From the NCBI GenBank assembly GCA_964504535.1, contig CAZDED010000007.1:12353-76352 (forward strand): DNA of 64,000 bases, read 5' to 3'. The position numbers and the translations under genes are program-made. Positions 7,079-41,753 of the stretch are shown here, in pieces. Position 1 is the first letter of the stretch; each line of letters starts with the position of its first letter. Source of the stretch: an uncultured Gammaproteobacteria bacterium. Its GTDB lineage: Bacteria; Patescibacteriota; Microgenomatia; Levybacterales; GWA1-39-11. Under the pieces are notes generated by a model that was given only the letters and a program-made list of their open reading frames with translations, ran no database searches and was not told the origin of the DNA.

Positions 7079-7120
7079 GTGGACTAAGGGGCGCAAAGCA
7101 AGCTTCACGCCCCGGTCAGG

Positions 7121-7579
7121 TCAGTTCTCTCGGGATTCCTCCGTTGGATGTTTCCATCGCCCATTTACCCATTCGCTGGGATCGACTCTCACCTTGGGGT
7201 GATAATCCTCATCCAGAAAACGTTGGCGTGCGATTTGAAACTGCCGCCTTTCGTCGTTCTGCCTTTCGGCATACAGACGGCAGATACGGTGGGTAACTCC
7301 CATGCATATCAGCGAAGCTGTGAAGCTTGCGATAAATATCACGGAATACCACCCGGACTCCTGGCTGGTGATCAACCCGCCCACTATGGCTGCGGCCGTG
7401 GGCCCGCCAAAGAAGACGCATACCTGAAGGATTTGGTATTTCCACTGCATCCTTCTGCCAGGTGTACGGTAGCCCATTGCCCCCGACAGCATGCAAAGCA
7501 AGCCGATCAGGATTATGGTGCTAGCCGCCAACTGGAATTCCGGCGTGCTGTAGAAGAGCGCGCTTTGATCCTCAGTCAC
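7121..7579 (-). CDS. hypothetical membrane protein in high-GC island 2
   Basis: 152 aa with 3-4 predicted TM segments. GC-rich codons. It follows the 180-aa ORF with a 3-nt gap, suggesting an operon. Confidence 0.4.
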   Translation of the reverse strand: MTEDQSALFYSTPEFQLAASTIILIGLLCMLSGAMGYRTPGRRMQWKYQILQVCVFFGGPTAAAIVGGLITSQESGWYSVIFIASFTASLICMGVTHRICRLYAERQNDERRQFQIARQRFLDEDYHPKVRVDPSEWVNGRWKHPTEESREN

Positions 7580-7582
7580 GTA

Positions 7583-8125
7583 CTAATCCGTTCCTTTTGT
7601 TGTGAGGAAACCCTCACTTGTATGCGGAAGTGTGCCGACGTAGATGACAATCCGCCCCCGGTAGTCGACGTACTGATCTATCTGTTTCTTGGCAGCTTCC
7701 GCTGCCACGAATTTGACGCTGTACGTCGTCTTGAGTTGGTTCTCATCCGAGGATGCTTGCGCATCCTTATTGTGGGCTTGGTAGACAACCTCCTTGGCTA
7801 CCTCGAACATCGTGTCGAGGAGCTGAGGATCCGGGCTGAAGCCCGGTGCTACGCAGGTCTCAAAGACCAAGCCACGGATAGTAACAACGGTACCATCCTC
7901 TCCCTGAACCGTGATGGTCTCAGAGAGTGGTTTTGTGACGGCTTTTGCGTTGACGCAATCGGCAGGAGCTGCTCCTACCGCAATTGCGGTGTTGGTGTTC
8001 TCCTCTTGGTTGGCCAGAGCCATTAGGGCGATGCCCGTTGTGGCAAGCACTGCCAAGAAAAGGACTGTGATGAAGGTGCGGGGTCCAAATGACATGATGG
8101 TTCCTCCCATAGAACCGCTAGGCAA
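7583..8125 (-). CDS. hypothetical secreted protein in high-GC island 2 (likely start at internal MSFGPRTF...)
   Basis: A signal-peptide-like N-terminus (FITVLFLAVLATTGIALMALA) is followed by a soluble domain. GC-rich codon usage. Confidence 0.4.
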   Translation of the reverse strand: MPSGSMGGTIMSFGPRTFITVLFLAVLATTGIALMALANQEENTNTAIAVGAAPADCVNAKAVTKPLSETITVQGEDGTVVTIRGLVFETCVAPGFSPDPQLLDTMFEVAKEVVYQAHNKDAQASSDENQLKTTYSVKFVAAEAAKKQIDQYVDYRGRIVIYVGTLPHTSEGFLTTKGTD

Positions 8126-8390
8126 AGCTTTGGGCTCTGCGATTTGTTAACTGACCTGTTGTTAATGTACAGACGCAGGACGCGTCTCTGATATGCAATA
8201 ACAATCAGGCCGCGCAATGCGCCAAGACATATATTATACCAAAAAAAACAACCAACATCAAAAACTATGGGACTAAATTCTTTACATTTAAGTCACAGAA
8301 TAATTTTTTGAAGCAAAATTTTCACAGGATATTATTAGCTTCAAATTAGTCTCACTTGATACTTATTTCCAAATACTTGATACTAAAGGT

Positions 8391-9281
8391 ATGCGGCTTC
8401 ACAAACTTGCGTCAAAAAAGTTAAAAAGCTTTCCAGTAATTGTGGTTTTTGGATTGTTTTTTATTCTTCTTATTGGTCAGGTATTTAGTGCTACTCTTTT
8501 TCCTCAGTTCTCCCAATCCAAATCATCGGTAGTCACTGCTACTGTCGGAACGTATCATCTATCAGTAACTGGATACCAATCTCCCTATGCGTCTATCATT
8601 TTAAAAACGCAAAACGGAATATTTTTAGCATCTACAACTGCTGATGCAAATGGGTATTTTTCTATATCAAACATATTGATTAATAGTTCAGTTTTGACAT
8701 ATTGTTTCCAAGCAGTCGATTTCAAAAGAATCGGAGAATCAGAAGCCTGCATTACTCTTGATGGCCCTATCAACTCTGATATCACCAGAACTGATATTTT
8801 TCTTCCGCCAACCATCGGCCTTTCCAAAAAACAGATAAACGCAGGACAAGACGCTATTATTTATGGGTACTCCATGCCGGGCGCAACCGTATACCTATAT
8901 ATAGAAGGAGAAGTGGTTACCCTAACCGCCGATATTACAGGATTTTATACTTACACCTATAAAAATGTCCCCGAGGGAGTATTTCGAATAACCACATCAG
9001 CGGAACTCAATGATAAAAAATCATTGGATCCTACCAATGAGGTTGTTCTTGAGTCCTTGTCTGTCGGCCAACAAATAACAAATACGGGTAAAAAAACCAT
9101 TGAGAAAGTCAAAAAAGCTGTGCCTTTTAATCTCCTCCCGTTCCTACTGATTGCATTAGGGTTTCTCGTAGCAATAGGCTTCTTACTCTATAAGCTGAAA
9201 CTGAGAATTTGGGTAATTTTTATAGACTTTTTGAGGCATCGAAAAAAGATGCACCACGACTGGTTCTTAGATAGATGGTAA
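8391..9281 (+). CDS. surface protein with two carboxypeptidase-regulatory-like domains and a C-terminal TM anchor
   Basis: Signal/TM N-terminus, two TADANGYFSI / TADITGFYTY motifs typical of the CarboxypepD_reg fold, then a C-terminal hydrophobic segment (LLPFLLIALGFLVAIGFLLY) followed by basic residues. Confidence 0.5.
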   Translation: MRLHKLASKKLKSFPVIVVFGLFFILLIGQVFSATLFPQFSQSKSSVVTATVGTYHLSVTGYQSPYASIILKTQNGIFLASTTADANGYFSISNILINSSVLTYCFQAVDFKRIGESEACITLDGPINSDITRTDIFLPPTIGLSKKQINAGQDAIIYGYSMPGATVYLYIEGEVVTLTADITGFYTYTYKNVPEGVFRITTSAELNDKKSLDPTNEVVLESLSVGQQITNTGKKTIEKVKKAVPFNLLPFLLIALGFLVAIGFLLYKLKLRIWVIFIDFLRHRKKMHHDWFLDRW

Positions 9282-9343
9282 ACCTGCTTGTTGACATAGT
9301 CAAACTATTCTGTTTTTAATAGTAATGTACGTATTATATCAAT

Positions 9344-10807
9344 ATGGACTTATTGTATTCGTTTAGCTTCAAAAGAGGGCTTCTTGTTCTTTGTGTTTTG
9401 CTGTTTTTCTTCACGATAACCACCAAACAAACTCATGCACTCTCATTCTCTTCAGCAAGTGCTACTCTCACAACCTCACGTCCATCAGCTGCAAGCCCAT
9501 TCAGCTCTGTTGGAGCTGTTAATGATAGCGTTCTAAATATTTTCAACAATGGCTCTCGATTTTTGGCTTCAGATTCAGCCAAAGTCGTACGGGCAACCGG
9601 TACTTCTAATACTGGTCTCAATGTTGCCTCACAGTCAGCCGATCTTCTCAAAGTATTTCTGACAAATGGACTTTCAACGCTTGCCGGTGCGGGAGCTGAT
9701 ATACTTGTTGTTCCTGTTACAGCTATGCATCAAGTTGGTTTTACCCCAAATTCGCCAATACCAAGTGGAGGAAAAATAATAATTTCGTATCCTGGAACAT
9801 TCCAAAATACTGCATCCCCTTCAGCAACAACATTTTCATTCAACAATCTTGTATCTGGCAATGTTAAATGTTTTCCGACAACTGCTTGTAGCGGCTCCAT
9901 CACTATCTCATCCAGTGGTATTCCAACTATTACCTTAGTCACGGGCGCTATACAACCTGCAGGTACTGTTATAACAGTATTTATCGGTTGCTCTGCAATT
10001 ACTGGATCAGCATGTACTACGCAGGTTCCAACTCTTATAAATCCTACAAAGACAAATTCCACTGCCGCTGGCGCTGATATTTGGAGAATAGGAGTGGCTT
10101 CAACAGATGCAAGCAACAATCCAATTGATAATTCAACTATCGCTATCGGTACGATAGAATCAGTAACCGTCCGTGCCACTATTGACCCAAGTCTCACATT
10201 TATCATTAGTGGTGTTACAGATGGACAAGCAGTCAACACTGGAAACACCACTGGATGCCTACAAGTTGAAACAACAAATACTGGTATAACTTCAACTGCC
10301 ACTGATGTTGGACTTGGAAGTCTTGCAAGCGTACCATCAGCAGGTACAAAACTTAACAATATTGCAGCACAACTTTTGGATGTCAGGACTAATGGAGCAA
10401 ATGGATACTCTATTACTGCAACTTCATCAGGGCCTCTTTCAAACCCTTCAACTGGTTTTTCAGTCAATAGTAGCACCACACCGTTGGTTTTCCCTTCAAC
10501 AGGCCATTTCTTTGGAATGCATCCCTGTGGCGCAGATGTAGATAGAATAAATTGGATTCAGGGTTCTACTTCACAACTTTGCAACACATATGTTCCAGGT
10601 GCAAATCCTGTCTGTAAATACGCATGGCCTAATACTGCCCCTATGCTCGTTGCTCAAAGATCAGCTGGTCCAATTGGTACTGGTGCATCATGTGCATCGG
10701 GTGGCTGCGGACTCACTTCAGTATCCTATGCTGCTACACAAGATGTCTCTCTTCCCCCTGGAATCTATCAATCAGTTATCACGTACGTAGCAACGCCGTC
10801 TTTTTAG
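9344..10807 (+). CDS. secreted WxL-like domain protein (Tyr variant), paralogue A
   Basis: 487 aa with an N-terminal signal peptide. A mid-domain GANGYSITATSSG motif and the C-terminal PPGIYQSVITYVATPSF are positionally equivalent to the two WxL motifs of Firmicutes WxL domains, with Y in place of W. Paralogous to 12001-13458 and 27319-28122. Confidence 0.55.
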   Translation: MDLLYSFSFKRGLLVLCVLLFFFTITTKQTHALSFSSASATLTTSRPSAASPFSSVGAVNDSVLNIFNNGSRFLASDSAKVVRATGTSNTGLNVASQSADLLKVFLTNGLSTLAGAGADILVVPVTAMHQVGFTPNSPIPSGGKIIISYPGTFQNTASPSATTFSFNNLVSGNVKCFPTTACSGSITISSSGIPTITLVTGAIQPAGTVITVFIGCSAITGSACTTQVPTLINPTKTNSTAAGADIWRIGVASTDASNNPIDNSTIAIGTIESVTVRATIDPSLTFIISGVTDGQAVNTGNTTGCLQVETTNTGITSTATDVGLGSLASVPSAGTKLNNIAAQLLDVRTNGANGYSITATSSGPLSNPSTGFSVNSSTTPLVFPSTGHFFGMHPCGADVDRINWIQGSTSQLCNTYVPGANPVCKYAWPNTAPMLVAQRSAGPIGTGASCASGGCGLTSVSYAATQDVSLPPGIYQSVITYVATPSF

Positions 10808-10907
10808 TTATTAGTTATTAGGAATAGGACTAGTTACTAAAAAGGGCTGGACAAGAAGAATTAAATACGTATAAACTAAGAACTATTCCTGATAACTAAT
10901 AACTAAC

Positions 10908-11906
10908 ATGTCTACTGCTCGAAAGTGTAAAACAAAATATTTAGCAAAGTCTGCAATTATTTATACTGCGATAAGTGCGGGGCTTATTTTGAGCGTAAAA
11001 ATGATTTTTGCGCAAGAAGCAGTCAGGACCATCACTATCGTCCCACCAGCGAATGAATTTAAAGTAGATCCCGGAGACAAAACAGAAGGAACTCTTAAAG
11101 TTGTTAATGGTGGTACTACTCCACTCACATTTAAAGCCCAGGTAAAAGATTTTGTCGTTGAAGACTCAGTTGGAACCCCACATATTCTTGCAGATGACGT
11201 GCTTTCTCAGAAATATTCAGCTGCCAACTGGGTGGCAATTTCTCCAGATACCTTTACTATTCCTGCGGGACAGACACAAAAAATCAATTTTTACCTACAA
11301 GTACCACAAAATGCACGACCGGGAGGTCACTATGCTGCAATAGTTTATGAACCTCAAGAAGTTTTGGGAGTACAAGGAACAGGAACAGGTGTTGAAACTC
11401 ACGTTGGAACTCTTTTTTATGTCAGGGTCAATGGGGATATAGTCGAAAATGCAACCGTTAAGAAATTTCAACCAGCTCAAAAGATTACTGAATATGGGCC
11501 TGTTACCATCGATACGCAAATTGTTAACTACAGTGATTCCCATATCAGACCTCTTGGTACCGTCTCAATAAAAAATCTTTTTGGACAAGTAGTTGCTACA
11601 CAGACACTTGAAGAACACAATATCTTCCCTGAAGCAACCCGTGACTTTACCAATACTATCGGTAAAAAGTTGATGTTTGGTCCATATACCGCAGAGTTTA
11701 AGGCAACATATGGTACGGCAAACAACCTCACTCTTTTTGCAAGTGCCTCATTTTTTGTTTTCCCATGGAAAATCGTAGCTGTAGTCGTACTTGCCATCGT
11801 AGTCGCGGTTCTTCTTTTCATCTATTTCAGAAAGAAGAAAAAGCAAAACAAGGTAAATCCTATCCAACCTAACGCTCCACAAATGCCTCCAACACCACAG
11901 GTTTAG
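10908..11906 (+). CDS. DUF916/DUF3324-like cell-surface protein with C-terminal membrane anchor
   Basis: 332 aa. Signal peptide, beta-rich ectodomain (PGGHYAAIVYEPQE, SIKNLFGQVVA), then a C-terminal TM (WKIVAVVVLAIVVAVLLFIYF) and a basic tail RKKKKQNK. Homologous to 28592-29584. Confidence 0.55.
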   Translation: MSTARKCKTKYLAKSAIIYTAISAGLILSVKMIFAQEAVRTITIVPPANEFKVDPGDKTEGTLKVVNGGTTPLTFKAQVKDFVVEDSVGTPHILADDVLSQKYSAANWVAISPDTFTIPAGQTQKINFYLQVPQNARPGGHYAAIVYEPQEVLGVQGTGTGVETHVGTLFYVRVNGDIVENATVKKFQPAQKITEYGPVTIDTQIVNYSDSHIRPLGTVSIKNLFGQVVATQTLEEHNIFPEATRDFTNTIGKKLMFGPYTAEFKATYGTANNLTLFASASFFVFPWKIVAVVVLAIVVAVLLFIYFRKKKKQNKVNPIQPNAPQMPPTPQV

Positions 11907-12000
11907 TATTGCTTGATCAATCTCAAATTACTCCTAATCCTGACAACTAGTAACTAATTTCATTGACAAATAGAACCGATATTGTCTTAAATGGTATAGG

Positions 12001-13458
12001 ATGAAATTTTCGGCAAAAATTATTTTTGTCTTTATTTTATGTGGTTTTTATCTTGCCACAGGAACCGCTTATGCCGATGACTTATCAAATGCAAGCGTAA
12101 CCCTCTCAACCTCACGACCCTCGGCTTCAAGTCCATTATCCGCAGCCGCCACTTCCTCAGACGGAATAATTTCGGTATTCAATAATGGATCCCGATATTT
12201 AGCTTCTGATTCAGCACGGATTATTCAAGGATCAAGTGGTCTTCAAATAGTTGGGGGGCTTCCGGTAGCTTCCCAGTCAGCGTCGCTAACAAGCGTCTAT
12301 CTAGGTTCAAGTGTGGGAGTCGCAGCAGGTGCTGGATCTGACATATTGCAAGTACCAATAACAGCAATGCACACGGTTACCTTTACAACGATAAGTTCGG
12401 TACCCAATGGAGGGAAAATAATAATTACCTACCCAGGCTCGGGCAATAATTCCGCTTCTCCTTCTGCTACAACATTTGCTTTTAACGGTCTTCCAAATTC
12501 AACTGCAGCGGTTAAAGCAGCCAACGCTACCGATTGTAACGCTGTGACCGTGAGTGCACCAACAATTACCTGCACGACAAGCGCAATCATCCCAGCGGCG
12601 ACTCAGGTGACAATTTTTATCGGATGCACAGCTGTTAGTGGATCATGTACTACTCAAGCTCCTTATTTGATAAATCCAACAAAAAGCAATCAATCAGCCG
12701 GAACAGCTGATTCTTGGAGAATTCAAGTAAGCACTGCAGATGGCTCCAATAATGTTATTGATTCGCGTACTCTTGCTGTTGGCACAATTGAATCGGTTAC
12801 TGTCCGTGCAAACGTCGACCCATCCCTCACTTTTACCATTGCGGGTATTAATAATGGTGTTGCGGTCAATACGAATAATACGACGGGGTGCCTGCAGACA
12901 GAGCTAACAAGTACTGGTATAAATGCAACTGCAACAGATGTTAATATGGGCACGCTAGCTAACTCACCAAGTGCTACCAATACAACTGTAAGTAATATTT
13001 CTGCCCAATTACTAACAGTGACTACAAATGGAGCTACAGGATATGTGGTGACAGCGACATCGTCTGGACACCTGAGAAATCCTTCTACGGGATTTTTCCT
13101 GACGGATGCAGCTACCCCACAAGCTTTCCCAGCCTCAGGAGCAAATTTCTATGGATTTCATGCCTGTGGCCTTGATACGTATAGCGCTGGAATAGGTACT
13201 ACCTTCTGGAATTCAAGTGCCTCAGATACTAATTGCAATACTTATATAACAGGTTCCTCGGGAAATATTTGTAAATATGGATGGCCTACAACTTCTACGC
13301 CAATTAATATTGCTTCTGACACAACGGGACCAATAGGAAATGCTGTTGTTGCGGGAAGCGGCTTAACCTCAGTGAGCTATGCAGCTGGTGCTGATCCAGC
13401 AGTACCTCCGGGACAATACACGACTGTTGTGACTTACGTAGCAACTCCTTCATTCTAG
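12001..13458 (+). CDS. secreted WxL-like domain protein (Tyr variant), paralogue B
   Basis: 485 aa with a signal peptide. GATGYVVTATSSG and the C-terminal PPGQYTTVVTYVATPSF match paralogue A. The N-terminal motif LSTSRPSASSPLS...VFNNGSRYLASDSA is also shared with A. Confidence 0.55.
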   Translation: MKFSAKIIFVFILCGFYLATGTAYADDLSNASVTLSTSRPSASSPLSAAATSSDGIISVFNNGSRYLASDSARIIQGSSGLQIVGGLPVASQSASLTSVYLGSSVGVAAGAGSDILQVPITAMHTVTFTTISSVPNGGKIIITYPGSGNNSASPSATTFAFNGLPNSTAAVKAANATDCNAVTVSAPTITCTTSAIIPAATQVTIFIGCTAVSGSCTTQAPYLINPTKSNQSAGTADSWRIQVSTADGSNNVIDSRTLAVGTIESVTVRANVDPSLTFTIAGINNGVAVNTNNTTGCLQTELTSTGINATATDVNMGTLANSPSATNTTVSNISAQLLTVTTNGATGYVVTATSSGHLRNPSTGFFLTDAATPQAFPASGANFYGFHACGLDTYSAGIGTTFWNSSASDTNCNTYITGSSGNICKYGWPTTSTPINIASDTTGPIGNAVVAGSGLTSVSYAAGADPAVPPGQYTTVVTYVATPSF

Positions 13459-13499: not shown

Positions 13500-15203
13500 C
13501 TAGTTTGCCAGAGATGGTTGTTCTAACTCTTCCTTCTTATGAATAGGAATCGTAAAAAACACAGATGTGCCTTTCCCTATTTCTGAATGCAACCATATCT
13601 TACCCTCATGCTCGGAAAGAATAGCACGGGAGATGTACAACCCAAGCCCTGTCCCTTTTTCGCGTCTGGCGAAAGTAACCTGTGAGAATGGCTTAAAAAG
13701 ACTATCTATTTTATCGCGCTCAATACCTGCTCCTCTATCTTTGACCTCAACCTCAACGTACCCACTCCGTAACCGTGAAAAAACTTCAATGAGCGTGTGT
13801 GGCTCACTATATTTTATGGAATTTGACAATAAATTTGCCATTACCTGGCCTATTCTAATGGGGTCGAAATAGAAATTAGGTATGTTATCGTCTAAATGAT
13901 TTTCTATCAAAATAGACCTATCCTCGATTGCGTAGGACAATTCTTCAGTTGATTTACGGATCACGTCATTAATGTTTGATGGAATCATTGTAACCAGGGG
14001 TTTTCCAGCGTCAATCTTGGCGCTATCAAGCATGTCATCGATATCGATTAGTAGTCGTTCTGATGCATTTTTGATGATGAGCTTCATTTTTGTACGATCC
14101 TCTTCTTGAGTCTCAGCGCTCAATAATAATTCAGCAGCTCCTTTAATAGCAGTAAGGGGTGCTCTGAGCTCATGTATCATCATGTTCGTAAATCCTTCAC
14201 GTATCTTTTGCGTCTCATGCTCACGGGTTATATCCTGCATAGTAAGTGCCACACCGATGATCTTATCGCTTTCATACGAAAATACCGGAGTAACATAAAT
14301 ATTAAATTTGAGGTCAGTAACGGCAACATTTCTATAGATTGTACTCTTCTTTAAAATAATAACCTCTTTCATTTCAGAAATTATATTTGGCTTTAGGCTA
14401 AAACTTGAAAGAACTTTCAAAAGATCAGGATTGTCTTCCTTTATCCTGAGGAATCTAAGTGCAGCATGATTAATAGTAAACAAGTGTAATGACCCATTCT
14501 CAAGGGTAAAAAATATCTCTCCCGTTGACAAACTTTTTACCAAAGACTCTACTTTCCCTTTCTCTGTCTCAATAACATCCTCGAGACGACCAATAGCAAG
14601 CTGTGCTTTATTTACAATTTTATATAACATACTCATATCTTCTTCCTGGTAAGCATGAGGGATTTTTGAGGTTATTGTTATGATTCCTGTAAAGCGGTTA
14701 TTAAGAACAAGCGGAATATTAAAATAACTTGCTGGCATTGCATCGATTTGTACTGATGCATCAACTAACAGTTCTGCTTGAGGATTGATGTGGGATCCGG
14801 TTGATTTCTCAATAACGGGAAGCTCCTTAAACTCTGAGTCAATATTATAAAGTCCTTGAAGTATTATTTCTTTCACTCCATGGATGTATGAAGGACCAAT
14901 ATTTTCGTGTGTAACAGTCGTCAAGTCTAAATGGTCAGGTTCAATTATGGCATACGACACAGAACTTACTTGAAATATTTTCTCGGCTGTTGCGGCAATA
15001 GTTGAAGCAATATCTTTTGAACTTAGTGAGTATCCTATTTTTTCCGATAATTCTGCAAGAATAGTTAATTCAAAAAGTTTTCTTGCACTTTCTTTATGCT
15101 CTTTTTTATATGTTTCCTTGGTATTTTTTAGCTCAAAATAGAGATAAATGGTTGTTAAAAACAAAATCAAAAAACCAAACATGAAAAATGACTGTAGCAG
15201 CAT
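13500..15203 (-). CDS. sensor histidine kinase (TM, GAF/PAS-like sensor, HisKA, HATPase_c)
   Basis: 567 aa. N-terminal TM, H-box MIHELRAPLTAIKGAAELL, and ATPase motifs (NLLSNSIKYS, DRGAGI, GTGLGLYISR). Confidence 0.85.
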   Translation of the reverse strand: MLLQSFFMFGFLILFLTTIYLYFELKNTKETYKKEHKESARKLFELTILAELSEKIGYSLSSKDIASTIAATAEKIFQVSSVSYAIIEPDHLDLTTVTHENIGPSYIHGVKEIILQGLYNIDSEFKELPVIEKSTGSHINPQAELLVDASVQIDAMPASYFNIPLVLNNRFTGIITITSKIPHAYQEEDMSMLYKIVNKAQLAIGRLEDVIETEKGKVESLVKSLSTGEIFFTLENGSLHLFTINHAALRFLRIKEDNPDLLKVLSSFSLKPNIISEMKEVIILKKSTIYRNVAVTDLKFNIYVTPVFSYESDKIIGVALTMQDITREHETQKIREGFTNMMIHELRAPLTAIKGAAELLLSAETQEEDRTKMKLIIKNASERLLIDIDDMLDSAKIDAGKPLVTMIPSNINDVIRKSTEELSYAIEDRSILIENHLDDNIPNFYFDPIRIGQVMANLLSNSIKYSEPHTLIEVFSRLRSGYVEVEVKDRGAGIERDKIDSLFKPFSQVTFARREKGTGLGLYISRAILSEHEGKIWLHSEIGKGTSVFFTIPIHKKEELEQPSLAN

Positions 15204-17413: not shown

Positions 17414-17791
17414 TTAGTTTCTATGTACATTCTCTAAGATGCTTTTTACTTTCTTAAGTAAATCTTCATGTGATATCTGATACTTCAAAATATAATCAAT
17501 TGCTCCTCTATTGAGCGCTTCCTTTACTAATTCGTCATGAGAAAAATTAGTAAGCATGGCAACTGGTATACCTTTTATAGCCTCGTCTTCCTTTAAAGCC
17601 CTCAGAACATCATTTCCACTCATATCAGGCATCATTTGATCCAAAAGTATAAGATCAAATTTTTCCGACTTTGCAGAGGCCAACGCTCCTTGACCGTTAT
17701 TGGCTATAGTTACCTCATACCCTCCCTGCTTCAAAACAGTCTCAAATACTGTAGCAGTATCAAGCTCGTCATCAACAAGAAGAATTTTCAT
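17414..17791 (-). CDS. single-domain response regulator (REC only, CheY-like)
   Basis: 125 aa. ILLVDDE, the phospho-acceptor LILLDQMMPDMSG, and the conserved Lys region; no output domain. Confidence 0.85.
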   Translation of the reverse strand: MKILLVDDELDTATVFETVLKQGGYEVTIANNGQGALASAKSEKFDLILLDQMMPDMSGNDVLRALKEDEAIKGIPVAMLTNFSHDELVKEALNRGAIDYILKYQISHEDLLKKVKSILENVHRN

Positions 17792-26563: not shown

Positions 26564-27184
26564 ATGAAAAGTAAACAAATTTTGGAAGGCTCCTCGATCG
26601 TTTTGGCAGTATTTACGGTCTTTATTGTGATGTCAACAGCACTTAGCGCTTATTCCACATATTTGCTAGCCATACTAATTATCTTTTCTGCAATATATAT
26701 AAGTATAAAAAAAAGATCGAAATCAGCTTCAAATTTATTCTCAGGAGGATCTGTTGAGCTGTATGGCCTGATTGCTATTATCACTCTTATGATTAGTTTG
26801 ACAAATGGCCTCAACTCCCCCCTTTTCTTCTTTACGTATTTTATATTGTTCTTACTCGCATTCTTATGCGAACCAATTACAATACTTGTGTACCTAATAT
26901 CGGCATTACTTTTCTTTATGCCTCAGGCTACGGCCAACCCCAACACAGACATGTTGATAAAAATGGGCTCATTAATTTTAATCGCACCAATAGCTTATTT
27001 TATAGGTCAAGAATTTGAGCGTAGAAAAATATTAGATGAAAAAATAGAAAGCAAAACTGATGAGATCATTCAGGAAGCGCGACTGCTAAAAGAGGATGGA
27101 AACCCTAAAGCGCAAGACGAATCTGAGGCTATTGATGAAATAATCGAAGAAGCAAGTTCTCTAAAAAAAGATTCAGAAGAATAA
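26564..27184 (+). CDS. hypothetical membrane protein with acidic coiled C-terminus
   Basis: 206 aa with 5-6 TM segments followed by an E/D/K-rich tail. Confidence 0.45.
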   Translation: MKSKQILEGSSIVLAVFTVFIVMSTALSAYSTYLLAILIIFSAIYISIKKRSKSASNLFSGGSVELYGLIAIITLMISLTNGLNSPLFFFTYFILFLLAFLCEPITILVYLISALLFFMPQATANPNTDMLIKMGSLILIAPIAYFIGQEFERRKILDEKIESKTDEIIQEARLLKEDGNPKAQDESEAIDEIIEEASSLKKDSEE

Positions 27185-27318
27185 GTACCAATACTGAAAT
27201 GAATTCTTATTTCGTTAAAAGTGATTTGAAGGCTAAATCACGCAAGTGATTGAACTAAGAAAACATATACAGGAAGACTTCACATAGCGAAGCTCCACAC
27301 CGAGCGTCACTTTTAAAG

Positions 27319-28122
27319 ATGAGAAGAAGCGACCAGAAAAGGAAATCAACTATGAAAAATTGGCCAATTTTACTACTTTTCTCACCAAAAGGAACTGCAA
27401 TATTCCTTACGCTTAACTTTGCCCTTTTTTGCTTATTCATAGGTAAGAGTATTTATGCAGAAACGATGTCTAATTCATCGTATAAAATCAGGTTTGGCAA
27501 CCTCAATTCATTTGCTGGTAAGCCTTCAAATGCCTCATACAGCCTTGGGATAACCGGAGGACAAATAGCCCCAGGTCTATATTCGGGCACAAATTTCAAG
27601 GTGAGAGCTGGGTTCCAATACATAAAGTCCATCATTCCATTCACCTTTAGCATTAGCAGCATCTTCATAGACTTTGGGCCCATAACTCCTGGCACGCCTA
27701 TCACACGCACAAATATACTTACAATTTCAAATGGTTCTGCATATGGCTACACGGTTCTTGCAAGCGAAAATCACCCTCTTTTGATCAACAGTACGGGCAT
27801 ATCAATTCCTGATACTACCTGCGACACGGGAACGTGTAGTGAGTCTGTGCCTGCAGCGTGGGCAAATCCTACAACATTTGGCTTTGGCTATCGTTGTGAC
27901 AATATTGTCGGCACTGATTGTCAATCTGGTTTTAGTACAGCTACAAATTACCGACAGTTCTCCGCAAGTAATTCAGGAGAGCTGGCCTACCCGGTAATGC
28001 GTGGGGTAAATGTAGGACGGAATATTCAAGGACAGATCACCTATAAAGTCAATGTCAGTGCTGCTCAAGCGACAGGCGAATATCAGAATGTCATCTCATT
28101 TGTTGCGGTTCCTTCAATATAA
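27319..28122 (+). CDS. secreted WxL-like domain protein (Tyr variant), short paralogue C
   Basis: 267 aa (likely start MKNWPILLL at 27352). GSAYGYTVLASENHPL and the C-terminal TGEYQNVISFVAVPSI match paralogues A and B. Confidence 0.5.
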   Translation: MRRSDQKRKSTMKNWPILLLFSPKGTAIFLTLNFALFCLFIGKSIYAETMSNSSYKIRFGNLNSFAGKPSNASYSLGITGGQIAPGLYSGTNFKVRAGFQYIKSIIPFTFSISSIFIDFGPITPGTPITRTNILTISNGSAYGYTVLASENHPLLINSTGISIPDTTCDTGTCSESVPAAWANPTTFGFGYRCDNIVGTDCQSGFSTATNYRQFSASNSGELAYPVMRGVNVGRNIQGQITYKVNVSAAQATGEYQNVISFVAVPSI

Positions 28123-28591: not shown

Positions 28592-29584
28592 TTGGGATAC
28601 TATAAATGTATGAAAAGAAAAGCTATTTTTCGCATACTTATCCTTCTTGTATTTCTCTCTATAGCAAAAAGTAACATCTTTGCCCAAGAACAATCCTTAA
28701 GTATTTTTCCTCCGGTAATAGAGGTCCAAACCACTCCTCCATCTTCACCTTTAACCCCAATCACTATCCAAAATAATGCAGAAAATGACCTTAAGTTAAA
28801 AATTGAACTTATACCGTTCAAAACAAACAACATTACTGGTGAAATAAGACTAGTTCCAAATGATATTTCTAAAGGTTTTTATCCATACTACCGTGACCGT
28901 ATTCAGTTTTTAGTTGATGGTAAAAAGACAGATACGGTTATTCTAGCACCCCTTGAATCCAAGCAAGTTGAACTCAATATAAATCTAGCAAAAGGCGATC
29001 CTCCCGGTGATTACTATTACTCTATTGTTTTTATCAACCAACAAGAGGCTTCTTCAGGCTCAAGTGTGTCTCAAATGCCGGCAGGAATTGCTACAAATCT
29101 TCTCCTTTCTATCGGACCAAAAGATCAGTCATCAGGATCAATTTCCCAGTTCAAAACATCATCATTTAAAACAAATGGTCCTGTTGATTTTGAGCTTAAA
29201 ATTCACAATTCTAGTAAACATCTTATCAACCCTACGGGATCTATTCAGATTAAAAATCTTTTTGGCCAAACGGTAGGCGCTGTTAAAATCTTGCCTCAGT
29301 ACATACTTGCTGGTTCAGATAGGTTTATGCTTGATGATAAACAAAGCTCGCCTGAGGCTCAACTAGCCTCTCAGCAACTCAACTCTACCCCTAAAGTCAT
29401 ATGGCCGGAAAAATTCTTACTTGGCTGGTACGAGGCAAAGGCTACGATATTACTTGAGGAGGATGGCAGAAAATACACACAATCACTCTACTTCTTTGCC
29501 TTTCCACTTTACCTTTTCTTCCCACTGGTTACAGCAATATTTATTGCACTCAGCGTTTACCTCAGAGTGAAAAAGAAAATATAG
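28592..29584 (+). CDS. DUF916/DUF3324-like cell-surface protein with C-terminal membrane anchor (paralogue of 10908-11906)
   Basis: 330 aa. Signal peptide, PPGDYYYSIVFINQQEA and SIQIKNLFGQTVGA motifs shared with 10908-11906, then a C-terminal TM (LYLFFPLVTAIFIALSVYL) and basic tail RVKKKI. Confidence 0.55.
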   Translation: MGYYKCMKRKAIFRILILLVFLSIAKSNIFAQEQSLSIFPPVIEVQTTPPSSPLTPITIQNNAENDLKLKIELIPFKTNNITGEIRLVPNDISKGFYPYYRDRIQFLVDGKKTDTVILAPLESKQVELNINLAKGDPPGDYYYSIVFINQQEASSGSSVSQMPAGIATNLLLSIGPKDQSSGSISQFKTSSFKTNGPVDFELKIHNSSKHLINPTGSIQIKNLFGQTVGAVKILPQYILAGSDRFMLDDKQSSPEAQLASQQLNSTPKVIWPEKFLLGWYEAKATILLEEDGRKYTQSLYFFAFPLYLFFPLVTAIFIALSVYLRVKKKI

Positions 29585-30274: not shown

Positions 30275-33200
30275 ATGGAATTACTAGAACTATTCAAAAG
30301 ACAATTAGCATCTACACCTAACACTTCTTCCAAGAATACGATCAAGAATTATGTCTCCGACGTGCGTCATTTTATCTCCTGGTTTGAGGCTGTTACAGCT
30401 TCAAAATTTGAAGCTAGTTCTATCACTCCTGATGTGATTCTTCTCTACCAAAACAGCATGGGAGGCCTCCTTTTGGATGGTCAATTACAAATCAACAGCC
30501 AACTTTCAGCGGCGTCCATGAAAAGACACTTATCCTCAATTCGTAAGTTTTTCACAGTGCTTGAGGGAGAAAATATACTCCGTGAAAACCCTTTTAAAAA
30601 AATTGTCACGGAAGAGACAGTAGAACCGACCGACTATTGGCACCTAAAGTCATTCAGGGATTATCTGATGATGGGAAAGGCATCAAAGATCACTGTCAAG
30701 AATTATCTATCAGACATTTCGGGCTTTGCACGTTGGTATGAAGAAGCGGTTCTTCCAACTGTAGAAAATCCGGTAAGTTCAAATCAGGGATTTTATCTTA
30801 TTACTCAAGCAATTGTTGAGGATTATAGAAAAAGACTTGTTGAAATCCAAAATGCTGCTCCTAGAACTATCAACAGAAAACTCTCAGCTCTAAGACGTTA
30901 TTTGGAATTTGCTACAAAAAAAGGTTTTATCACAAATCGGGAGATAAATATAAGCTCGGTTGAAGCTGAAATCGCTCAAGAGGTTCAGGATCTACCGAAA
31001 GTTCCCCTATCTGAAATATCCACACAACTAACTCCACAGAAGCGAATGTATTCAAAAATACCACCGGTTCGATTAGTTCAAAAACTATTTGTTAACCCCT
31101 ATCTTCTCCTCGAAGAAGGTGCTGCCAATGCAATAACTACCTTTCTCATCGGTAAAAAAGTGACAGGCATTGCAAATCTTCCTCAGAAATTATCTGCTCA
31201 AATTGTCGCTAAAAATGCTCTTAGGGTTCAAAATCAAGGATTAAGCACTCTTCTTAGCGTAAGAAATATAGAGAAAGAATTCTATGCCCCAGAAAAAATT
31301 TCTCTCTCAGGTCTTCCCATACACCAAAAACTGTTCCATCATGTCAGATTTAATAGACCTAATTGGTATAAAAGATATCATAACTATGCATTTGTTCATT
31401 ACATCCACTTCGCTCTCCTTGTTATTTTTGCATCAGGTGTAGGAGTTGCTTTATATCAAAATTTAGTTGTCCAAAAACAAACACCAACCTTTGCCGCCGC
31501 TACTGCTCCACCGAGAATTTTGTCTTTTCAGGGAAGACTTACCGATGCACTCGACAATCCAATTACCTCACCTCAACCAGTGAGGTTCATGATTTATAAC
31601 AGCCTTGCTGCAACTGGAGCTGCAGAGCTTTGGGAAGAGACAAGGACAATTTCTCCCGACCAGGATGGTATATTTTCTGTACTTTTGGGTAGCGACTCAA
31701 CTGGTGCTAACGCGTCATCCTGCGGATCATTCCCGCCAGGAAGTCCATATAATACTGCTTGTCTTATCCCTTCAACGGTATTTTCAGACAATAGCCAAAT
31801 TTGGCTTGGAGTTACTATTGCCAATAGCACTGAGCTTGCACCTCGTCAAAAAATAGCTACCGTCGGATACGCTAGCAATTCAGAATTCCTTCAAGGGTTA
31901 CCACCAACTTCAGCAGTCAGTAGCTTTGTAAATGCAGTTCTTGCACTTGACAGTACTGGAAGTTTTAACCTAAATGATGGAATTGAACATACATTTCAGG
32001 TAAGTAACGGCACCCTCACCCTAAAAGCTCAAACCCTAAATTTAACTACTAGTCTTGGTACAAATGGTAATATAATCTTGAATCCTGAGGGATCAGGTAA
32101 GGTCGACATTCAAAAACCTATTATCAACAATTCAAATACCGGCAATCTTGTGCCTGGTGGGGTTGAGATTAATGATAAGTTTGGAGTCCTTGCTACCGAA
32201 TCAGCAGTAGCTGCTTTTATAGTAAATAACAATACCACAGGTGGTGATATTTTTGCAGCCTCATCTTCAGGTACAACGAGATTCAAAATTGCAAATGATG
32301 GATCAATCACCTCAGGCTTTTATACCGGTCAAAATGCAGTGCTCTATGGCACTCAAACAACAGGAGTGATAGGTCAAGTAACTACCGCTTCAACGGGACT
32401 TTGCCTTCAATCCGGAGCTTCCCTCCCTACCTGGGGAACATGCGGAACCAGCTACTGGAATCTCACTACTGACAATGGTGCACTAACCCCATTCAGTAGC
32501 ACACTTGACTTGCTTATTGGCGGTCAATCAACAGCTTCTGCTAAATTTGCTTTCATCAATAATGCTTCAGGGTCACCTACCGCTTCGATATCTGGCAATT
32601 TATCAATTGCAGTGCCAACTGGAGCCAATGGGGCAAATCTTTTCAATATCTTTAACGGGGGAAGCCTTAACTTTCAAACCTCAGGAGGTGGTAACGCTGG
32701 CCTTACTTCCCGTCTCTTTATAGCAAATGACGGCAGAATCGGCATCGGAACTACGAGCCCATTTAGTAGAAATGCTTTAGATATCAGGGGATTAAGTGGA
32801 ACATCTTCAACAGCTTCTATCTCTGCTACTTCTTCATATGCAACTCTCGTTGTTGATAATGCAGGCAGTGGGGATCTTATAGCAGCGAGCGCCTCTGGAG
32901 TTCCCAACTTTGTAGTCAAAAATAATGGAGACATAATTGTTGGACCTGGTGGTGGAGGAAAAATTACGGCAGCTATCATTGACCCATATCTTATTCAAAA
33001 TCAAAAAACAACAGGAATCCAAAGCCTCACTTTCCAAACCCTAGGTGCTTCAAATGCTGATTTTGTCTTTCAGAATACAAGCACAACCCTCTCAACACTG
33101 ACAATGGCAGGTCAATTCCAATTGCCAATAACCGGATCTACTGGTGGAATTGTACTAGGTGGTGATACTCAATTATTTAGGGGGGCTGCTGACAGAATTG

Positions 33201-36200
33201 ACATTGCGGCAAATGACTCTCTTAACTTTCTTTCTGGATCTGGAGGATTACTAACTAATGGAACAACAAGGATAGATGCATCGGGTAATGGGACATTTGC
33301 AAATATTAATATTACTGGTACATGCACAGGATGTATAACTACTGGAAATTCTCCTTTCTATGTGTCAGAGGGTACGATTGTCCCAGGTAATACAACTGAA
33401 GACTTTATATTGGGAGGAACAGCATCAAGTAGTGCCCGATTTATTGTAAATGGCCTTGCAACAGGAATTGCACCAACTGCATCGATATCTGCTACTAATG
33501 GTAACGGAATATATCTTTCAGCACAAAATAGTACAGTCCAAACACTCAGGAATAACACACTGTCAATTGGAGGAAATACAACCGGTGCCGTAGCTATCAA
33601 TCCACTAGCCACAAATTTTACTGGTGTTGGCACCTCTAACCCGATGGCCTCGCTGGATATCAGAGGTTCGCTCGGCATTATTGGTGGAGGGACACTTGCA
33701 GTTGCTTCAATTTCTGGTAGAACATCATATGCAGCACTAGCTATAGACAACTTAAATACCGCAGGTGACCTGTTCACCGCTTCGTCTTCCTCGAATATGC
33801 AATTCGTGATCAAAAACAACGGATTTGTTGGCTTTGCAACAGCCGCCCCTACTGCCCGACTTGACGTCAATGGTTCGGCCTCAATTTCTAGTGCGCTAAC
33901 ATTTAGAACTGGCTCCGGAACTATTCAAACTTCAGCTAGCAATTCTCTTACTATAGGGGGCAATACAACTGGTTTTATAACAATCGATTCAGGCTCAGGA
34001 CTTGTGAATATTTTAGACAATACTAATATATCGGGTGCACTCACCGGCCTTACAGGGCTGACTCTAGCCAGTGGGGGCATAACATTAGGGGGAACAGTTG
34101 GTACAGGTACTCAATGTCTCCTTGGTGGTGCAACAGCCTCATGGGGCTCTTGTGGTAGCGGCGGAACCTCTCCCTTCCAATATACTACCTCGCCTACTGG
34201 TGCCATAATACCTATTAATTCTACCGTAGATTTTCTCATTGGTGGACAAGCAACCGAAAGTGCAAAATTTTCCATTCTCAATATAGCTGGAGGAACACCT
34301 ACGGCCTCAATTTCAGCTAATTCAGGTAATAATGCTGTCTATCTAACAGGAGATGGTACACTTGCAACAACAAATAGGCGTACGTTGACTATAGGCAATT
34401 CCTCAACATATGACACAACAGGAAATGTCCTGATCAACCCTAACGGAACAGGAAATGTTGGCATAGGCACAAATACATCAACTGTAAAACTAGAAATAGT
34501 TGATAATAATGGTACGGGAGGAATATTATTAAACGGACCCGTTAACGATACAGCCAACATTAGGTTTAGAAATACTAATCAGACTCCAAGCGATTTTAAT
34601 ATTGATTATGCAGGAGCAACTCTCAGATTTTTTACTGAAACAGGACTTGGCACTGGTGGAGTTTATAGAGGCGGGATTACGAATAATGGGCTCTTTGGAC
34701 TTGGAGTATCAGTACCGAGCTCCGAACTTCATGTATCGCGTCTTCTTACCCAACAAACCGCAACTGGTAAGGCCTTAGTACTATTTGATCAAAATGAAAA
34801 TCAAGATATTTTCACCGCTTCAGCATCAGGCACAACACGCTTTGTAATCCAGAACGATGGAGACGTTGGCATTGGAACCGATAGCCCACTAGCACCCCTT
34901 CATTTATCCGGATCTTCCCGTTCTATTTACCTGTCGGATGCTGGTCAATCCATAAGCTCCCAATGGTTCCTTTCTCCTGGTGCCAATAACTACCTTAATG
35001 GTACTGCTGCTGGCGATGGAGGAATAAAATTTCATTCAACTACTGGCTCCTTCGTAATAGGCCGAGATACAGGCAGTGTTGAATTTAAAATAACAAACAC
35101 TGGGAATCTAGGACTCGGAACGTACTATTCCCCCACAGGTGTTAATCCAACAGCAAAATTACAAGTATATTCTCTTGGCACCACCCCAGTAGCCTCAATT
35201 TCCGGTAAGACTTCTGGTCCTACTCTACTTCTATCAAATGATGGAACTGGTGATATTCTAGCTGCTTCAGTATCAGGAGTTCAAAAGTTCAGGATCAATG
35301 CTGCAGGAGATCTTATTGTTGGAGACGGATCAGGCAAGATATATGGTGGAGGATTTGATCCACTATTCACAATCGATGGCAAGAAATTCTCTACATACGC
35401 TTCTGGTATTAACGGTATGAAGGAAGAATATATCGGTAGTGCAAATCTTGCTTATGATGCAGCTGCTGGTGGGTACGCATATACTCTGGACTTCAACAAT
35501 TTTGAGTACGGCAGTGAATTGTGGACCTTCTCCCGTGTAATTGACCCTGATCTGACGAAAGTCAATGTCCTTCTCACCCCCACCTCACAGGCAAGGACAT
35601 GGTTCCGCCGTGACCCAGTCAACAGAAAACTCATACTTTATTCCGACCGCCCAACCAGTGTTACATTTAGGTTCACTGCTCCCCGCTTTGACTATGCTCT
35701 GTATCCATCTTCAAATCATTCCCATGATATTGCTGGTTTACAAGCACCAGTAGCACCAAACACTATCGGAACTGGCGAGGCTGATCCAATGGATTCTTTC
35801 CTTGCTTCCCTCTCAATTCAGTTCAATAATGGTCTATTTGTAGTATTGGATGGATTTGGCAACATGGTTCACCGGGTCGATGGATTCTCAAATCTCATCG
35901 CAGCAAATCTTGAAGCTGGTTTTATTCATACAAGAAATCTAGCAGCAGACACTTTGTCAGCTGGAAGTGCTTCACTTGGCAACGCAACCGCAAATACTTT
36001 TGCCGTTGCTGCAAATACAATCACAATTGGTGGAAAAGACATCAGACAATTTATCATAGATACTGTCACAGCAGCAGGATTTGGCCAAAATACAATCATT
36101 TCACCGTTAGCAGAAGTTGAAACGATAAAAACAAACACCATTCGTCCTCTAGCCGACGGTGGGGATATAACTGTAAAAGGAAAACTCATTACTGAGTCAG

Positions 36201-40728: not shown

Positions 40729-40737
40729 ATGTTTTAC

Positions 40738-41751: not shown

Positions 41752-41753
41752 AT

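Follow-up and report, generated by a model that had tools for sequence, protein, structure and literature searches.

A probable Pam-type pilus locus in a Microgenomatia genome, with membrane-anchored chaperones remotely homologous to Firmicutes WxLIP proteins

The Pam pilus of Ca. [quoted passage not shown] The same preprint reports PamA homologues in Microgenomatia, with one Roizmanbacteria example, and stresses ATP synthase, CorB and MFS neighbours in the surroundings of pamA. NCBIfam holds Saccharimonadia-based Pam models (NF058579, NF058581). In Firmicutes, WxL/Csc clusters combine a small WxL protein, a large WxL protein and WxLIP, which consists of DUF916, DUF3324 and a TM segment (Siezen 2006; Hassan & Williamson 2022/2023; PDB 9i1y, 9i25).

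We analysed a window of 64,000 nucleotides (contig CAZDED010000007.1), and consider it very probable that a CPR bacterium of the class Microgenomatia (Levybacteria-like) carries a Pam-type pilus locus here. Membership of the Pam system is proposed because no NCBIfam models other than CPR_pilus_PamT and CPR_Pam_pilin_C match the secreted proteins recurrently, and the architecture agrees with the preprint at every point. The Saccharimonadia-based models are matched weakly, with every Pam score under the NCBI cut-offs and far so (31.8 versus 240; 18.6 versus 55), so that the locus is, by sequence, a divergent copy or branch of the Pam pilus system. The system had been taken as apparently undescribed in the original prediction, which the 2026 preprint and the models already in NCBIfam show to be wrong. 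Unlike in Pam, the cluster is split into two halves, 8391-13458 and 26564-37177, with a gap of ~13 kb; the five open reading frames previously singled out are all present as placed. The features are:

8391..9281, + strand: 296-aa protein, candidate PamR-like terminator/membrane anchor (domain matches, architecture, adjacency)
9344..10807, + strand: long Pam-type pilin 1, 487 aa (NCBIfam CPR_Pam_pilin_C, AF2 model, conservation profile)
10136..10213, + strand: pilin 1 linker, putative donor strand, aa 265-290, TIAIGTIESVTVRATIDPSLTFIISG (conservation and low pLDDT)
10908..11906, + strand: membrane-anchored chaperone 1, 332 aa, PamC/PamD-like and WxLIP-like
12001..13458, + strand: long Pam-type pilin 2, 485 aa, paralogue of pilin 1
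13500..15203, - strand: sensor histidine kinase (HisKA and HATPase_c)
17414-17791, - strand: receiver protein (homologue near the cluster in 10 loci)
26564..27184, + strand: 206-aa polytopic membrane protein, conserved cluster member (recurrence)
27319..28122, + strand: PamT-like short subunit, 267 aa (NCBIfam CPR_pilus_PamT)
28592..29584, + strand: membrane-anchored chaperone 2, 330 aa, paired with the PamT-like subunit
30275..37177, + strand: giant 2300-aa membrane-anchored fibre-like protein, following the second pair
47815-48513: IPNTG-type protein, about 18 kb away

The three secreted proteins had been proposed to be paralogues with common mid-domain and C-terminal motifs, and both their sequences and their homology bear this out. 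The first motif reads GYSITAT, GYVVTAT and GYTVLAS in 9344-10807, 12001-13458 and 27319-28122, respectively, and the second, GIYQSVITYVATPSF, GQYTTVVTYVATPSF and GEYQNVISFVAVPSI in the same protein order, lies at the extreme C-terminus, 117-131 residues past the first. As in the Sec-exported Pam pilins, pilin 1 comprises, after a signal peptide (approximately aa 1-32), an N-terminal beta-sandwich domain (NTD, aa 33-264), a conserved linker (aa 265-290) and an incomplete Ig-like C-terminal domain (CTD, aa 291-487). The latter is homologous to the Pam CTD, with CPR_Pam_pilin_C matching aa 342-487 (E=1.5e-3, NCBIfam) and 17 of the 38 long-family members (best 2.3e-8). The AF2 model displays two beta domains (pLDDT 76), and the monomer has no significant PDB neighbour. 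Pilin 2, 56% identical to pilin 1, yields no Pam match in NCBIfam by itself and is recovered by the family HMMs at 6e-101 (NTD) and 1e-105 (CTD). Conservation along the pilins peaks in the linker and the CTD motifs, and over 48 pilins the linker is one of the best conserved stretches. Residues 271-281 of pilin 1 fall below pLDDT 50 in the monomer model, as expected for a donor strand, since it needs a partner groove. By analogy with PamA and PamB, where the linker between the two domains serves as donated strand (bioRxiv 10.64898/2026.03.03.709456), this segment is a putative donor strand. The pilins also share with Pam conserved Cys residues that are consistent with pairs.

The third secreted protein retains a signal peptide, a short N-terminal segment and the Pam C-terminal domain only, without the long NTD, and so resembles the CTD-only short subunit of Pam. 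CPR_pilus_PamT matches it at near full length (E=9.3e-8, model positions 6-239 of 241) and detects 20 of 21 short-family members (best 3.8e-15), and CPR_Pam_pilin_C matches 21/21 (best E=2.4e-10). The protein aligns with the C-terminal ~200 residues of the two long proteins at 22% identity, and hhalign shows its C-terminal domain to be homologous to that of the long proteins (97.6%, E=2.7e-12). We regard it as a putative tip/initiator subunit.

Each secreted protein adjoins, as had been noted, a protein of ~330 aa that combines a signal peptide with two beta domains, a TM helix and a Lys tail, and Pam likewise has two PapD/FimC-like chaperones with a C-terminal TM helix. Both ~330-aa proteins of the window carry an N-terminal signal-like segment ending IFA|QE. 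In chaperone 1 this is followed by Ig-like domain 1 (aa ~38-160, DUF916-like), Ig-like domain 2 (aa ~164-285), a TM helix (aa ~287-314) and a KKKK tail, and the AF2 model recovers two beta domains and the TM helix with pLDDT 85. Chaperone 2, only 25% identical to chaperone 1, has a DUF916-like domain 1, a second beta domain, a TM helix and a KKK tail.

The proposed resemblance of these partners to the DUF916+DUF3324 (CscA-like) type is upheld at the level of remote homology. WxLIP likewise has a signal peptide, two angled Ig-like domains, a TM helix and a basic tail, and is the best fold match in the PDB: the top three Foldseek matches of chaperone 1 are the WxLIP structures 9i25 (9i25_C)/9i1y (E~2e-11), with CfaA, FimC, CsuC, EcpB and Caf1M behind (E=1e-9 to 1e-7). 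In sequence, the partner-family profile matches EfmWxLIP1 in the PDB (E=8.5e-5), the sole significant match among 177,635 sequences. Aligned to Firmicutes WxLIP by hhalign, the partner families reach 95-98% probability; chaperone 1 scores 97.6% at full length, with 81% (E=1.2e-5) when the mature parts alone are compared and 90% (E=1.5e-6) when the comparison is confined to domain 1, and the subfamily of chaperone 2 (A9) scores 95.3% (E=2.4e-8), against E=0.06-0.7 for cross-domain and decoy controls. PF06030 is the most frequent Pfam match (23/38 partner-family members; 23/25 in A9, best 1.5e-7), and one CPR member exceeds its gathering cut-off (30.3 versus 27.3 bits), with the copies in the window at 21.7 bits, under the cut-off, for chaperone 1 and 14.9 bits for chaperone 2. 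Conversely, a WxLIP HMM retrieved 25 matches from 1252 CPR ORFs, all of the partner family (24 labelled as partner and one truncated partner). Significance is reached for the DUF916 domain, and sequence similarity in the DUF3324 domain is weak (E=0.024). The ~330-aa chaperones are true remote homologues of Firmicutes WxLIP/CscA (DUF916/DUF3324 and TM). Considering that the Pam preprint (bioRxiv 10.64898/2026.03.03.709456) makes no mention of WxL, DUF916 or DUF3324, this cross-phylum link appears to be unreported, and it suggests that the Firmicutes WxL clusters use a donor-strand-type mechanism too.

Gene order is conserved across ~40 genomes: the short subunit is followed by chaperone 2, the long pilin, chaperone 1 and, optionally, a further pilin. 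A survey of related genomes had been suggested as a check on the pairing, and there the chaperone gene directly follows that of the pilin in 40 of 42 informative loci. One locus (L047) comes from a Roizmanbacteria genome, a lineage for which the preprint too gives an example of a PamA homologue. With homologues numbering hundreds for both the pilin and the ~330-aa partner family, and several independent assemblies carrying the exact same locus, the pairing is far beyond chance. Each chaperone consistently accompanies one and the same class of subunit, which differs from Pam, and this adjacency suggests which chaperone serves which subunit.

Aggregated, a Sec-exported pilus built by chaperone-assisted donor-strand exchange is the most likely function. 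Every component would be exported through its Sec signal peptide, and the two chaperones, each tethered to the membrane by its C-terminal TM helix, would hold the exported subunits by donor-strand complementation, inserting a strand into the open CTD. The linker strand of an incoming pilin would then take the place of the chaperone strand in the preceding subunit's CTD, so that the fibre grows, with the PamT-like subunit at the tip, and the two-Ig TM protein (8391-9281) probably achieving termination and anchoring. Filament formation and strand exchange are proposed here by analogy to Ca. Mycosynbacter amalyticus, whose filaments have been seen by cryo-EM.

The reading closest to the original prediction is a static Csc/WxL complex, in which Trp-to-Tyr WxL variants bind the wall non-covalently, held by the DUF916/DUF3324-like TM protein, and display the giant protein together with their own N-terminal domains, but do not polymerise. 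Besides the genuine WxLIP homology, the layout of short single-domain protein, partner and long protein with the same domain C-terminally equals a minimal WxL cluster, and in Pam and WxL systems alike AF2 predicts a partner strand completing the beta-sandwich of the secreted protein. The best CTD-WxL alignment, non-significant, beats decoys and is collinear over all four motifs with similar pattern and spacing (117-131 versus 96-120 residues). The secreted proteins, however, have Tyr/Phe where WxL has Trp, and the WxL model does not match them: of the suggested Pfam checks, that of PF06030 gave recurrent matches in the partner families, but PF13731 is found in 0/38 long members and not in the short protein of the window, a WxL HMM retrieved nothing from the 1252 CPR ORFs, and hhalign returns E=0.011-0.03, about control level. 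The Trp-to-Tyr proposal accordingly lacks statistical support, and CTD-WxL homology is unproven at the sequence level. The WxL proteins examined have almost no Cys, and published descriptions of WxL proteins in general speak of complexes bound to peptidoglycan rather than of pili. Sortase/LPXTG genes often lie inside WxL clusters but not inside the CPR cluster; a sortase-type protein is indeed in the window, as predicted, though its motif is IPNTG and it is 18 kb off. Moreover, the secreted proteins match Pam pilin and PamT models, whose proteins form cryo-EM filaments, and the conserved linker fits strand exchange and has no role in a static complex. We therefore find the wall-bound complex unlikely and, the system being the Pam pilus of CPR bacteria, the donor-strand pilus the better functional reading.

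That unrelated secreted beta-rich adhesins merely adjoin a generic Ig-like membrane protein, with likenesses due to the common Ig-like fold only, is highly improbable: many partner-family Pfam matches are generic fn3/Ig families and the curated-family scores of the window proteins are all under threshold, but the matches are specific and reciprocal, and the near-complete PamT match, the one member above the PF06030 cut-off, the conserved gene order and above all the specificity controls (WxLIP HMM, decoys, PDB search) largely refute it.

The donor-strand pilus shares with the chaperone-usher pili (Pap/Fim, CFA/I, Csu, Caf1) a two-domain, boomerang-shaped chaperone fold, and in both a donated strand fills in Ig-like subunits that are incomplete by themselves. 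It differs in having no usher and no outer membrane, a membrane-anchored chaperone, a donor strand supplied by an internal linker instead of an N-terminal extension, subunits with a large extra N-terminal domain, and no detectable sequence similarity.

Adjacency also suggests roles for the neighbouring genes. The 296-aa protein begins with a signal-like segment, continues with two Ig-like domains in tandem and ends in a TM helix with basic tail, an architecture that fits PamR as the preprint describes it, and a homologue adjoins the cluster in 38/44 loci. Its family shows Big_6/CarboxypepD_reg matches in 19-20 of 21 members and a Bap-like match in the PDB (E=7.9e-6), with no direct sequence match to RbmA; it is a candidate PamR-like terminator/anchor. 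The 206-aa membrane protein, with no match in Pfam or NCBIfam, has homologues that immediately precede the PamT-like gene in 23 loci. Giant surface proteins had been expected nearby, and the 2300-aa protein follows the second pair; it has two N-terminal integrase-SAM-like domains, a hydrophobic segment (~aa 372-400) and then an S/T/G/N-rich region. Its homologues lie beside the cluster in 27 loci, and it is probably the counterpart of what the Pam neighbourhood network lists as a 'tail fibre-like protein'. The two-component system, also foreseen, consists of the histidine kinase and the receiver protein, both on the minus strand; the pair recurs near the cluster, unlike in Pam, and the kinase, with homologues there in 16 loci, is a possible regulator.

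The three secreted proteins and the two partners of approximately 330 residues that had been predicted here were confirmed by ORF calls and alignments, with both sequence motifs in place and each secreted protein located beside a partner. The same locus, with the same gene calls, was found again in several independent metagenome assemblies, and a scan with a profile of the partner, using one genome per species, yielded 44 loci.

Genes of the locus in the window; fractions give the loci with a homologue near the cluster.
8391-9281: two-Ig TM protein of 296 aa (38/44 loci)
9344-10807: secreted protein of 487 aa, pilin 1
10908-11906: partner, chaperone 1
12001-13458: secreted protein of 485 aa, pilin 2
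13500-15203: histidine kinase (16/44 loci)
17414-17791: receiver protein (10/44 loci)
26564-27184 (+): membrane protein of 206 aa (23/44 loci)
27319-28122: short secreted protein of 267 aa, PamT-like
28592-29584: partner, chaperone 2
30275-37177 (+): giant protein of 2300 aa (27/44 loci)

[quoted passage not shown] The first motif reads GYSITAT, GYVVTAT or GYTVLAS in the three proteins, followed 117-131 residues later by the terminal G-x-Y-x-x-V-[IV]-[TS]-[YF]-V-A-[TV]-P-S-[FI]. In the AF2 model of the pilin (pLDDT 76), two beta domains are joined by a segment, residues 271-281, with pLDDT below 50, and the best-conserved stretches of 48 long pilins include this linker (271-290), QLLxVxTNxxxGYxITATSSG and the C-terminal PPGxYxxVITYVATPSF. 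A fold search of the PDB with the monomer model, which is without its donor strand, matched generic Ig-like folds only, and neither phmmer nor profile searches with the pilins found anything relevant, or a PamA or PamB entry, among PDB sequences. Both the pilin and partner families have hundreds of homologues, none of them annotated.

These proteins fit, part for part, the Pam pilus system of CPR bacteria. The preprint on this system (10.64898/2026.03.03.709456) presents two filaments of Ca. Mycosynbacter amalyticus, solved by cryo-EM, in which the CTD takes up the linker of the neighbouring subunit by donor-strand exchange, with the donated strand and its binding site having the same conservation pattern as the window-type pilins. 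The operon encodes the CTD-only PamT, proposed as the tip; PamC and PamD, chaperones of PapD/FimC type that bear a TM helix at the C-terminus; PamR, which combines two FnIII-like domains with a TM helix; and PamE. Homologues are known from Saccharimonadia and, through a language-model search, from Microgenomatia, including a Roizmanbacteria example; the preprint describes the system as one found in CPR alone and does not settle where it came from. In the window, the AF2 model and the conservation of the pilins agree with the Pam layout of an N-terminal beta-sandwich, a single linker (putative donor) strand and a CTD.

Database models support the same assignment at a distance. The 267-aa protein matched CPR_pilus_PamT (NF058579, an equivalog model) over positions 6-239 of 241 with E=9.3e-8 and 31.8 bits, below the NCBI cut-off of 240 bits, and is therefore called PamT-like rather than an equivalog. 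Pilin 1 matched the 'Pam pilus system pilin subunit' model with E=1.5e-3 and 18.6 bits (cut-off 55), the 267-aa protein matched the Pam pilin model with E=0.023, again below the 55 bits set for CPR_Pam_pilin_C, and pilin 2 had no match to the NCBIfam Pam pilin model.

Matches of the secreted protein families to NCBIfam Pam models.
Short family, CPR_Pam_pilin_C: 21/21 members, best E=2.4e-10
Short family, CPR_pilus_PamT: 20/21 members, best E=3.8e-15
Long family, CPR_Pam_pilin_C: 17/38 members, best E=2.3e-8

Pam models were the only recurrent NCBIfam matches at the family level, and every score lay under the NCBI cut-offs; we thus regard the locus as a divergent Pam branch, not an equivalog. 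Sequence comparison supports pilin-family homology to the Pam pilin model at the level of the family, below the curated threshold. The original prediction had considered the system undescribed, which was wrong, as systems of this kind were first described in 2026 and the locus is a divergent example.

The genomic context is congruent with this assignment. The long pilin is encoded directly upstream of a partner in 40 of 42 informative loci as mapped by HMMs (the 42 leave out two loci ending at contig ends; L052 and L053 are without a pilin), so that the expected cluster logic and the pairing in related genomes were both borne out. Most commonly, the order runs from the 206-aa membrane protein through the PamT-like protein, chaperone 2, the long pilin, chaperone 1 and optional further pilins to the two-Ig TM protein on the opposite strand and then the giant protein; in the window, as in its close relatives, the cluster lies in two pieces (8391-13458 and 26564-37177). 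The closest relative (L011) shows 92-98% identity over several genes, and the window is syntenic with a Levybacteria MAG from Rifle (L020), which indicates an organism of Levybacteria-like type. Titles of the 44 records include Levybacteria/Levyibacteriota, Roizmanbacteria, Microgenomates, Paceibacterota, Patescibacteria and one Saccharibacteria. Among L010-L051, many of the TPA MAGs with the CPR cluster are titled 'uncultured Gammaproteobacteria bacterium', clearly placeholder or wrong labels. The 296-aa family, with two tandem Ig-like domains and a TM helix, is PamR-like in architecture and gave no sequence match to RbmA. The conserved cluster members included no recognised usher-like gene, and promoter and terminator scans remained at the level of shuffled sequence and did not define operons.

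The best-supported reading of the locus is a usher-less pilus, exported by Sec and assembled through donor-strand exchange; homology to Pam models, folds, conserved pairing of genes and the conservation pattern were all observed here. Polymerisation and strand exchange as such would be carried over from the Ca. M. amalyticus filaments of the preprint. Adjacency, and only adjacency, suggests that each chaperone may be specific for its neighbouring client, that the 296-aa, 206-aa and giant proteins may have roles in the system, and that the kinase/receiver pair may regulate it. Classical chaperone-usher pili employ an outer-membrane usher and a soluble periplasmic chaperone, whereas the Pam-like locus is without a recognised usher and its chaperones are TM-anchored; the likeness is one of chaperone fold, as detected by Foldseek. 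A static wall-bound surface complex, the function first proposed for these proteins, is probably wrong, with the donor-strand pilus being favoured instead.

The partners nevertheless lead back to the Firmicutes proteins from which that proposal was drawn. In both, the signal-like N-terminus ends in IFA|QE and the C-terminal part comprises a hydrophobic helix with a KKKK or KKK tail, and the AF2 model (pLDDT 85) comprises two beta domains and a TM helix at 287-314. Together with the Foldseek matches and the pairing in 40 of the 42 loci, this agrees with the PapD/FimC-like, TM-anchored chaperones that adjoin the Pam pilins. It equally reproduces the architecture of the WxL-interacting proteins (WxLIP, or CscA), namely a signal peptide, two Ig-like domains and a C-terminal TM helix, encoded next to secreted clients. 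Indeed, EfmWxLIP1 of E. faecium (9i25_C / 9i1y_A) was the sole significant match of the partner-family profile among all PDB sequences (E=8.5e-5). With the AF2 model as Foldseek query, WxLIP structures occupied ranks 1-3 (E=1.7e-11 to 1.3e-10), the alignment to 9i25_C covering 266 columns and spanning both domains, followed by CfaA, RbmA, FimC, CsuC, EcpB and Caf1M, with the chaperone-usher chaperones at E=1e-9 to 1e-7. Profile-profile comparison employed reference alignments built from nine Firmicutes WxL clusters on plasmids.

Comparison (hhalign) of the partner families with WxLIP.
Partner full length, WxLIP: 97.6%, E=2.9e-12 (253 columns)
Partner mature part, WxLIP mature part: 81%, E=1.2e-5 (213 columns)
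Partner domain 1, DUF916: 90%, E=1.5e-6
Chaperone-2 subfamily, WxLIP: 95.3%, E=2.4e-8
Partner domain 2, DUF3324: 2%, E=0.024
Cross-domain and decoy controls: at most 1%, E=0.06-0.7

The DUF916 model PF06030 was the commonest Pfam match of the partners, hitting 23 of 38 chaperone-1 and 23 of 25 chaperone-2 family members; the window copies scored 21.7 and 14.9 bits, under the gathering cut-off of 27.3, and a CPR partner beside a pilin gene at L037 (7443-8462) exceeded it with 30.3 bits. Conversely, when the six-frame ORFs of the CPR loci (1252 in all) were searched with a WxLIP HMM, 25 were retrieved, of which 24 were labelled partners and one a truncated partner. Because of these PDB, Foldseek, hhalign, PF06030 and WxLIP-HMM results, the earlier suggestion of a DUF916/DUF3324-like partner holds for DUF916 as a remote homology: by sequence, domain 1 is established as a remote DUF916/WxLIP homologue, with the copies of the window itself lying below threshold. 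For DUF3324, PF11797 matched none of 63 partner members scanned, and that half of the likeness is supported by predicted fold and architecture only. In NCBIfam, the partner matched no Pam chaperone model, and its STEVOR/RIFIN matches look like noise, falling on the C-terminal TM/tail region.

The partner-like proteins of L052 and L053 gave no bridge through Pfam. L052, from a MAG titled Thermoleophilia bacterium, has a lone 483-aa protein with a long cytoplasmic tail (9725-11176), matched by the CPR family HMM with E=9e-52. Its neighbours are housekeeping ORFs resembling uvrA, sigma-70 and lgt, and a pilin is absent from the vicinity; either this family reaches beyond CPR or the bin is contaminated. 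The most divergent protein, from a Parcubacteria MAG (L053, 9839-10834), has a weak N-terminal match to Peptidase_M73 (E=0.009), the camelysin/TasA family, another donor-strand fibre family, which is probably noise.

The secreted proteins had been proposed as WxL-family members with Tyr in place of Trp, and this was not borne out. PF13731 (WxL) matched none of the 38 long members at thresholds of E<=1-10, nor the three window proteins even at E<=10, and a WxL HMM from 132 sequences found nothing in the 1252 CPR ORFs. In the motifs, the CPR proteins carry Tyr or Phe, not Trp. Small WxL proteins align as ...LxFG...VQVTDxRGxxxGWxLxVxQNxQF...VMSA...YxTTLTWxLxxTP and the PamT-like family as ...IDFG...LTVxNxSAxGYxVTAxENxxL...VMSG...GxYxNVITYIATPTF, with a similar motif spacing (96-120 residues in WxL, 117-131 in CPR); low-stringency hhalign paired the four motifs collinearly over 130-137 columns. 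With 21 short sequences, the CTD-WxL comparison gave E=0.03, against 0.021 for the reversed profile and 0.035 for the best of 30 column shuffles. All 69 CTDs gave E=0.011 and a score of 22.6, above the reversed control (9.7) and decoy domains (at most 17.7) and far from significant; probabilities ranged from 1.7% for the short family to 3.9% for all CTDs. Global mode produced meaningless end-overlaps. No WxL-domain chain was detectable among the PDB chains searched, and what 9i25 contains as 'long WxL' must be a fragment. Since WxL matches were absent and the CTD-WxL statistics lay near control level, membership in the WxL family is not supported, and the Trp-to-Tyr analogy is visually apt with weak statistics.

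In Enterococcus, Listeria and lactobacilli, WxL/Csc clusters are tied to virulence and to adhesion to the host, with function and mechanism unclear since 2006. From the homology of the Pam chaperones to WxLIP, and from Pap/Fim-type chaperones being the closest structural neighbours of WxLIP after itself, a testable mechanism for WxL clusters follows, donor-strand complementation and exchange, as does an evolutionary root for Pam pili. A serious but tentative possibility is a common origin in one ancient donor-strand system of single-membrane (monoderm) bacteria, assisted by chaperones and without an usher, of which Pam pili and WxL/Csc clusters would be the two branches. WxLIP/CscA would then be a membrane-anchored PapD-like chaperone and the WxL domain the counterpart of the Pam pilin CTD, with Trp and Tyr interchanged on two platform strands, and assembly of WxL proteins would proceed through complementation and exchange of strands by way of their mobile N-terminal strand, possibly giving short fibres. 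This proposal is well supported for the chaperone; for the subunits and for WxL polymerisation it is hypothetical. In the WxL structure literature, the two WxL strands form a buried hydrophobic platform, covered by an N-terminal strand that is mobile on its long, unstructured tether (Hassan & Williamson), features that read like donor-strand biology, although not so named there. Behind the signal peptide of small WxL proteins (in L001, L008 and others, e.g. L001 3504-5780), a short SNGxIxF strand and then a Pro-rich PVDPxDP linker precede the domain; this looks like an N-terminal donor-strand extension and matches that mobile strand.

The connection between Pam and WxLIP appears to be new. WxL, DUF916 and DUF3324 go unmentioned in the accessible part of the Pam preprint (10.64898/2026.03.03.709456), our searches found no literature on CPR mentioning DUF916, and for WxL with donor-strand or chaperone-usher mechanisms they returned only a review and a secretome-prediction study merely containing both terms. 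This cross-phylum bridge to Firmicutes is of more value than the locus itself, which as a divergent Pam locus widens the taxonomic range to Levybacteria-like Microgenomatia and clarifies which Pam genes are conserved: two chaperones, each accompanying a single subunit class, together with the two-Ig TM protein, the polytopic membrane protein and the giant fibre protein.

Several neighbouring features were also recorded. The 206-aa protein is polytopic, its C-terminal tail is acidic, and it matched no family; in 23 loci a homologue is encoded immediately upstream of the PamT-like protein, making it a candidate assembly factor, and it is absent from the discussion in the accessible part of the Pam preprint. 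The giant protein begins with two integrase-type SAM-like domains (residues 3-108 and 124-217), followed by a hydrophobic segment (~372-400) and a very long S/T/G/N-rich fibre-like region with a weak Bdello_MAT_N match, an odd combination of a cytoplasmic DNA-binding-type module and a surface fibre. Two patches (~7100-8130 and ~48900-50000) have higher G+C (0.48 and 0.52 vs ~0.40 background) and long overlapping ORFs on both strands; they matched no Rfam family, and the 360-aa ORF of the second patch was without a PDB relative. The Rfam search returned one tRNA only. The 232-aa protein at 47815-48513 (+) ends in IPNTG, a hydrophobic stretch and RKKSK, a sortase-type sorting signal. Finally, between 933-aa and 174-aa ORFs, a GspG-like ORF (40738-41751) carries a prepilin-type N-terminal methylation motif, and the surrounding genes (37927-42278, minus strand) may represent a type IV pilus-related set apart from the Pam-like locus.
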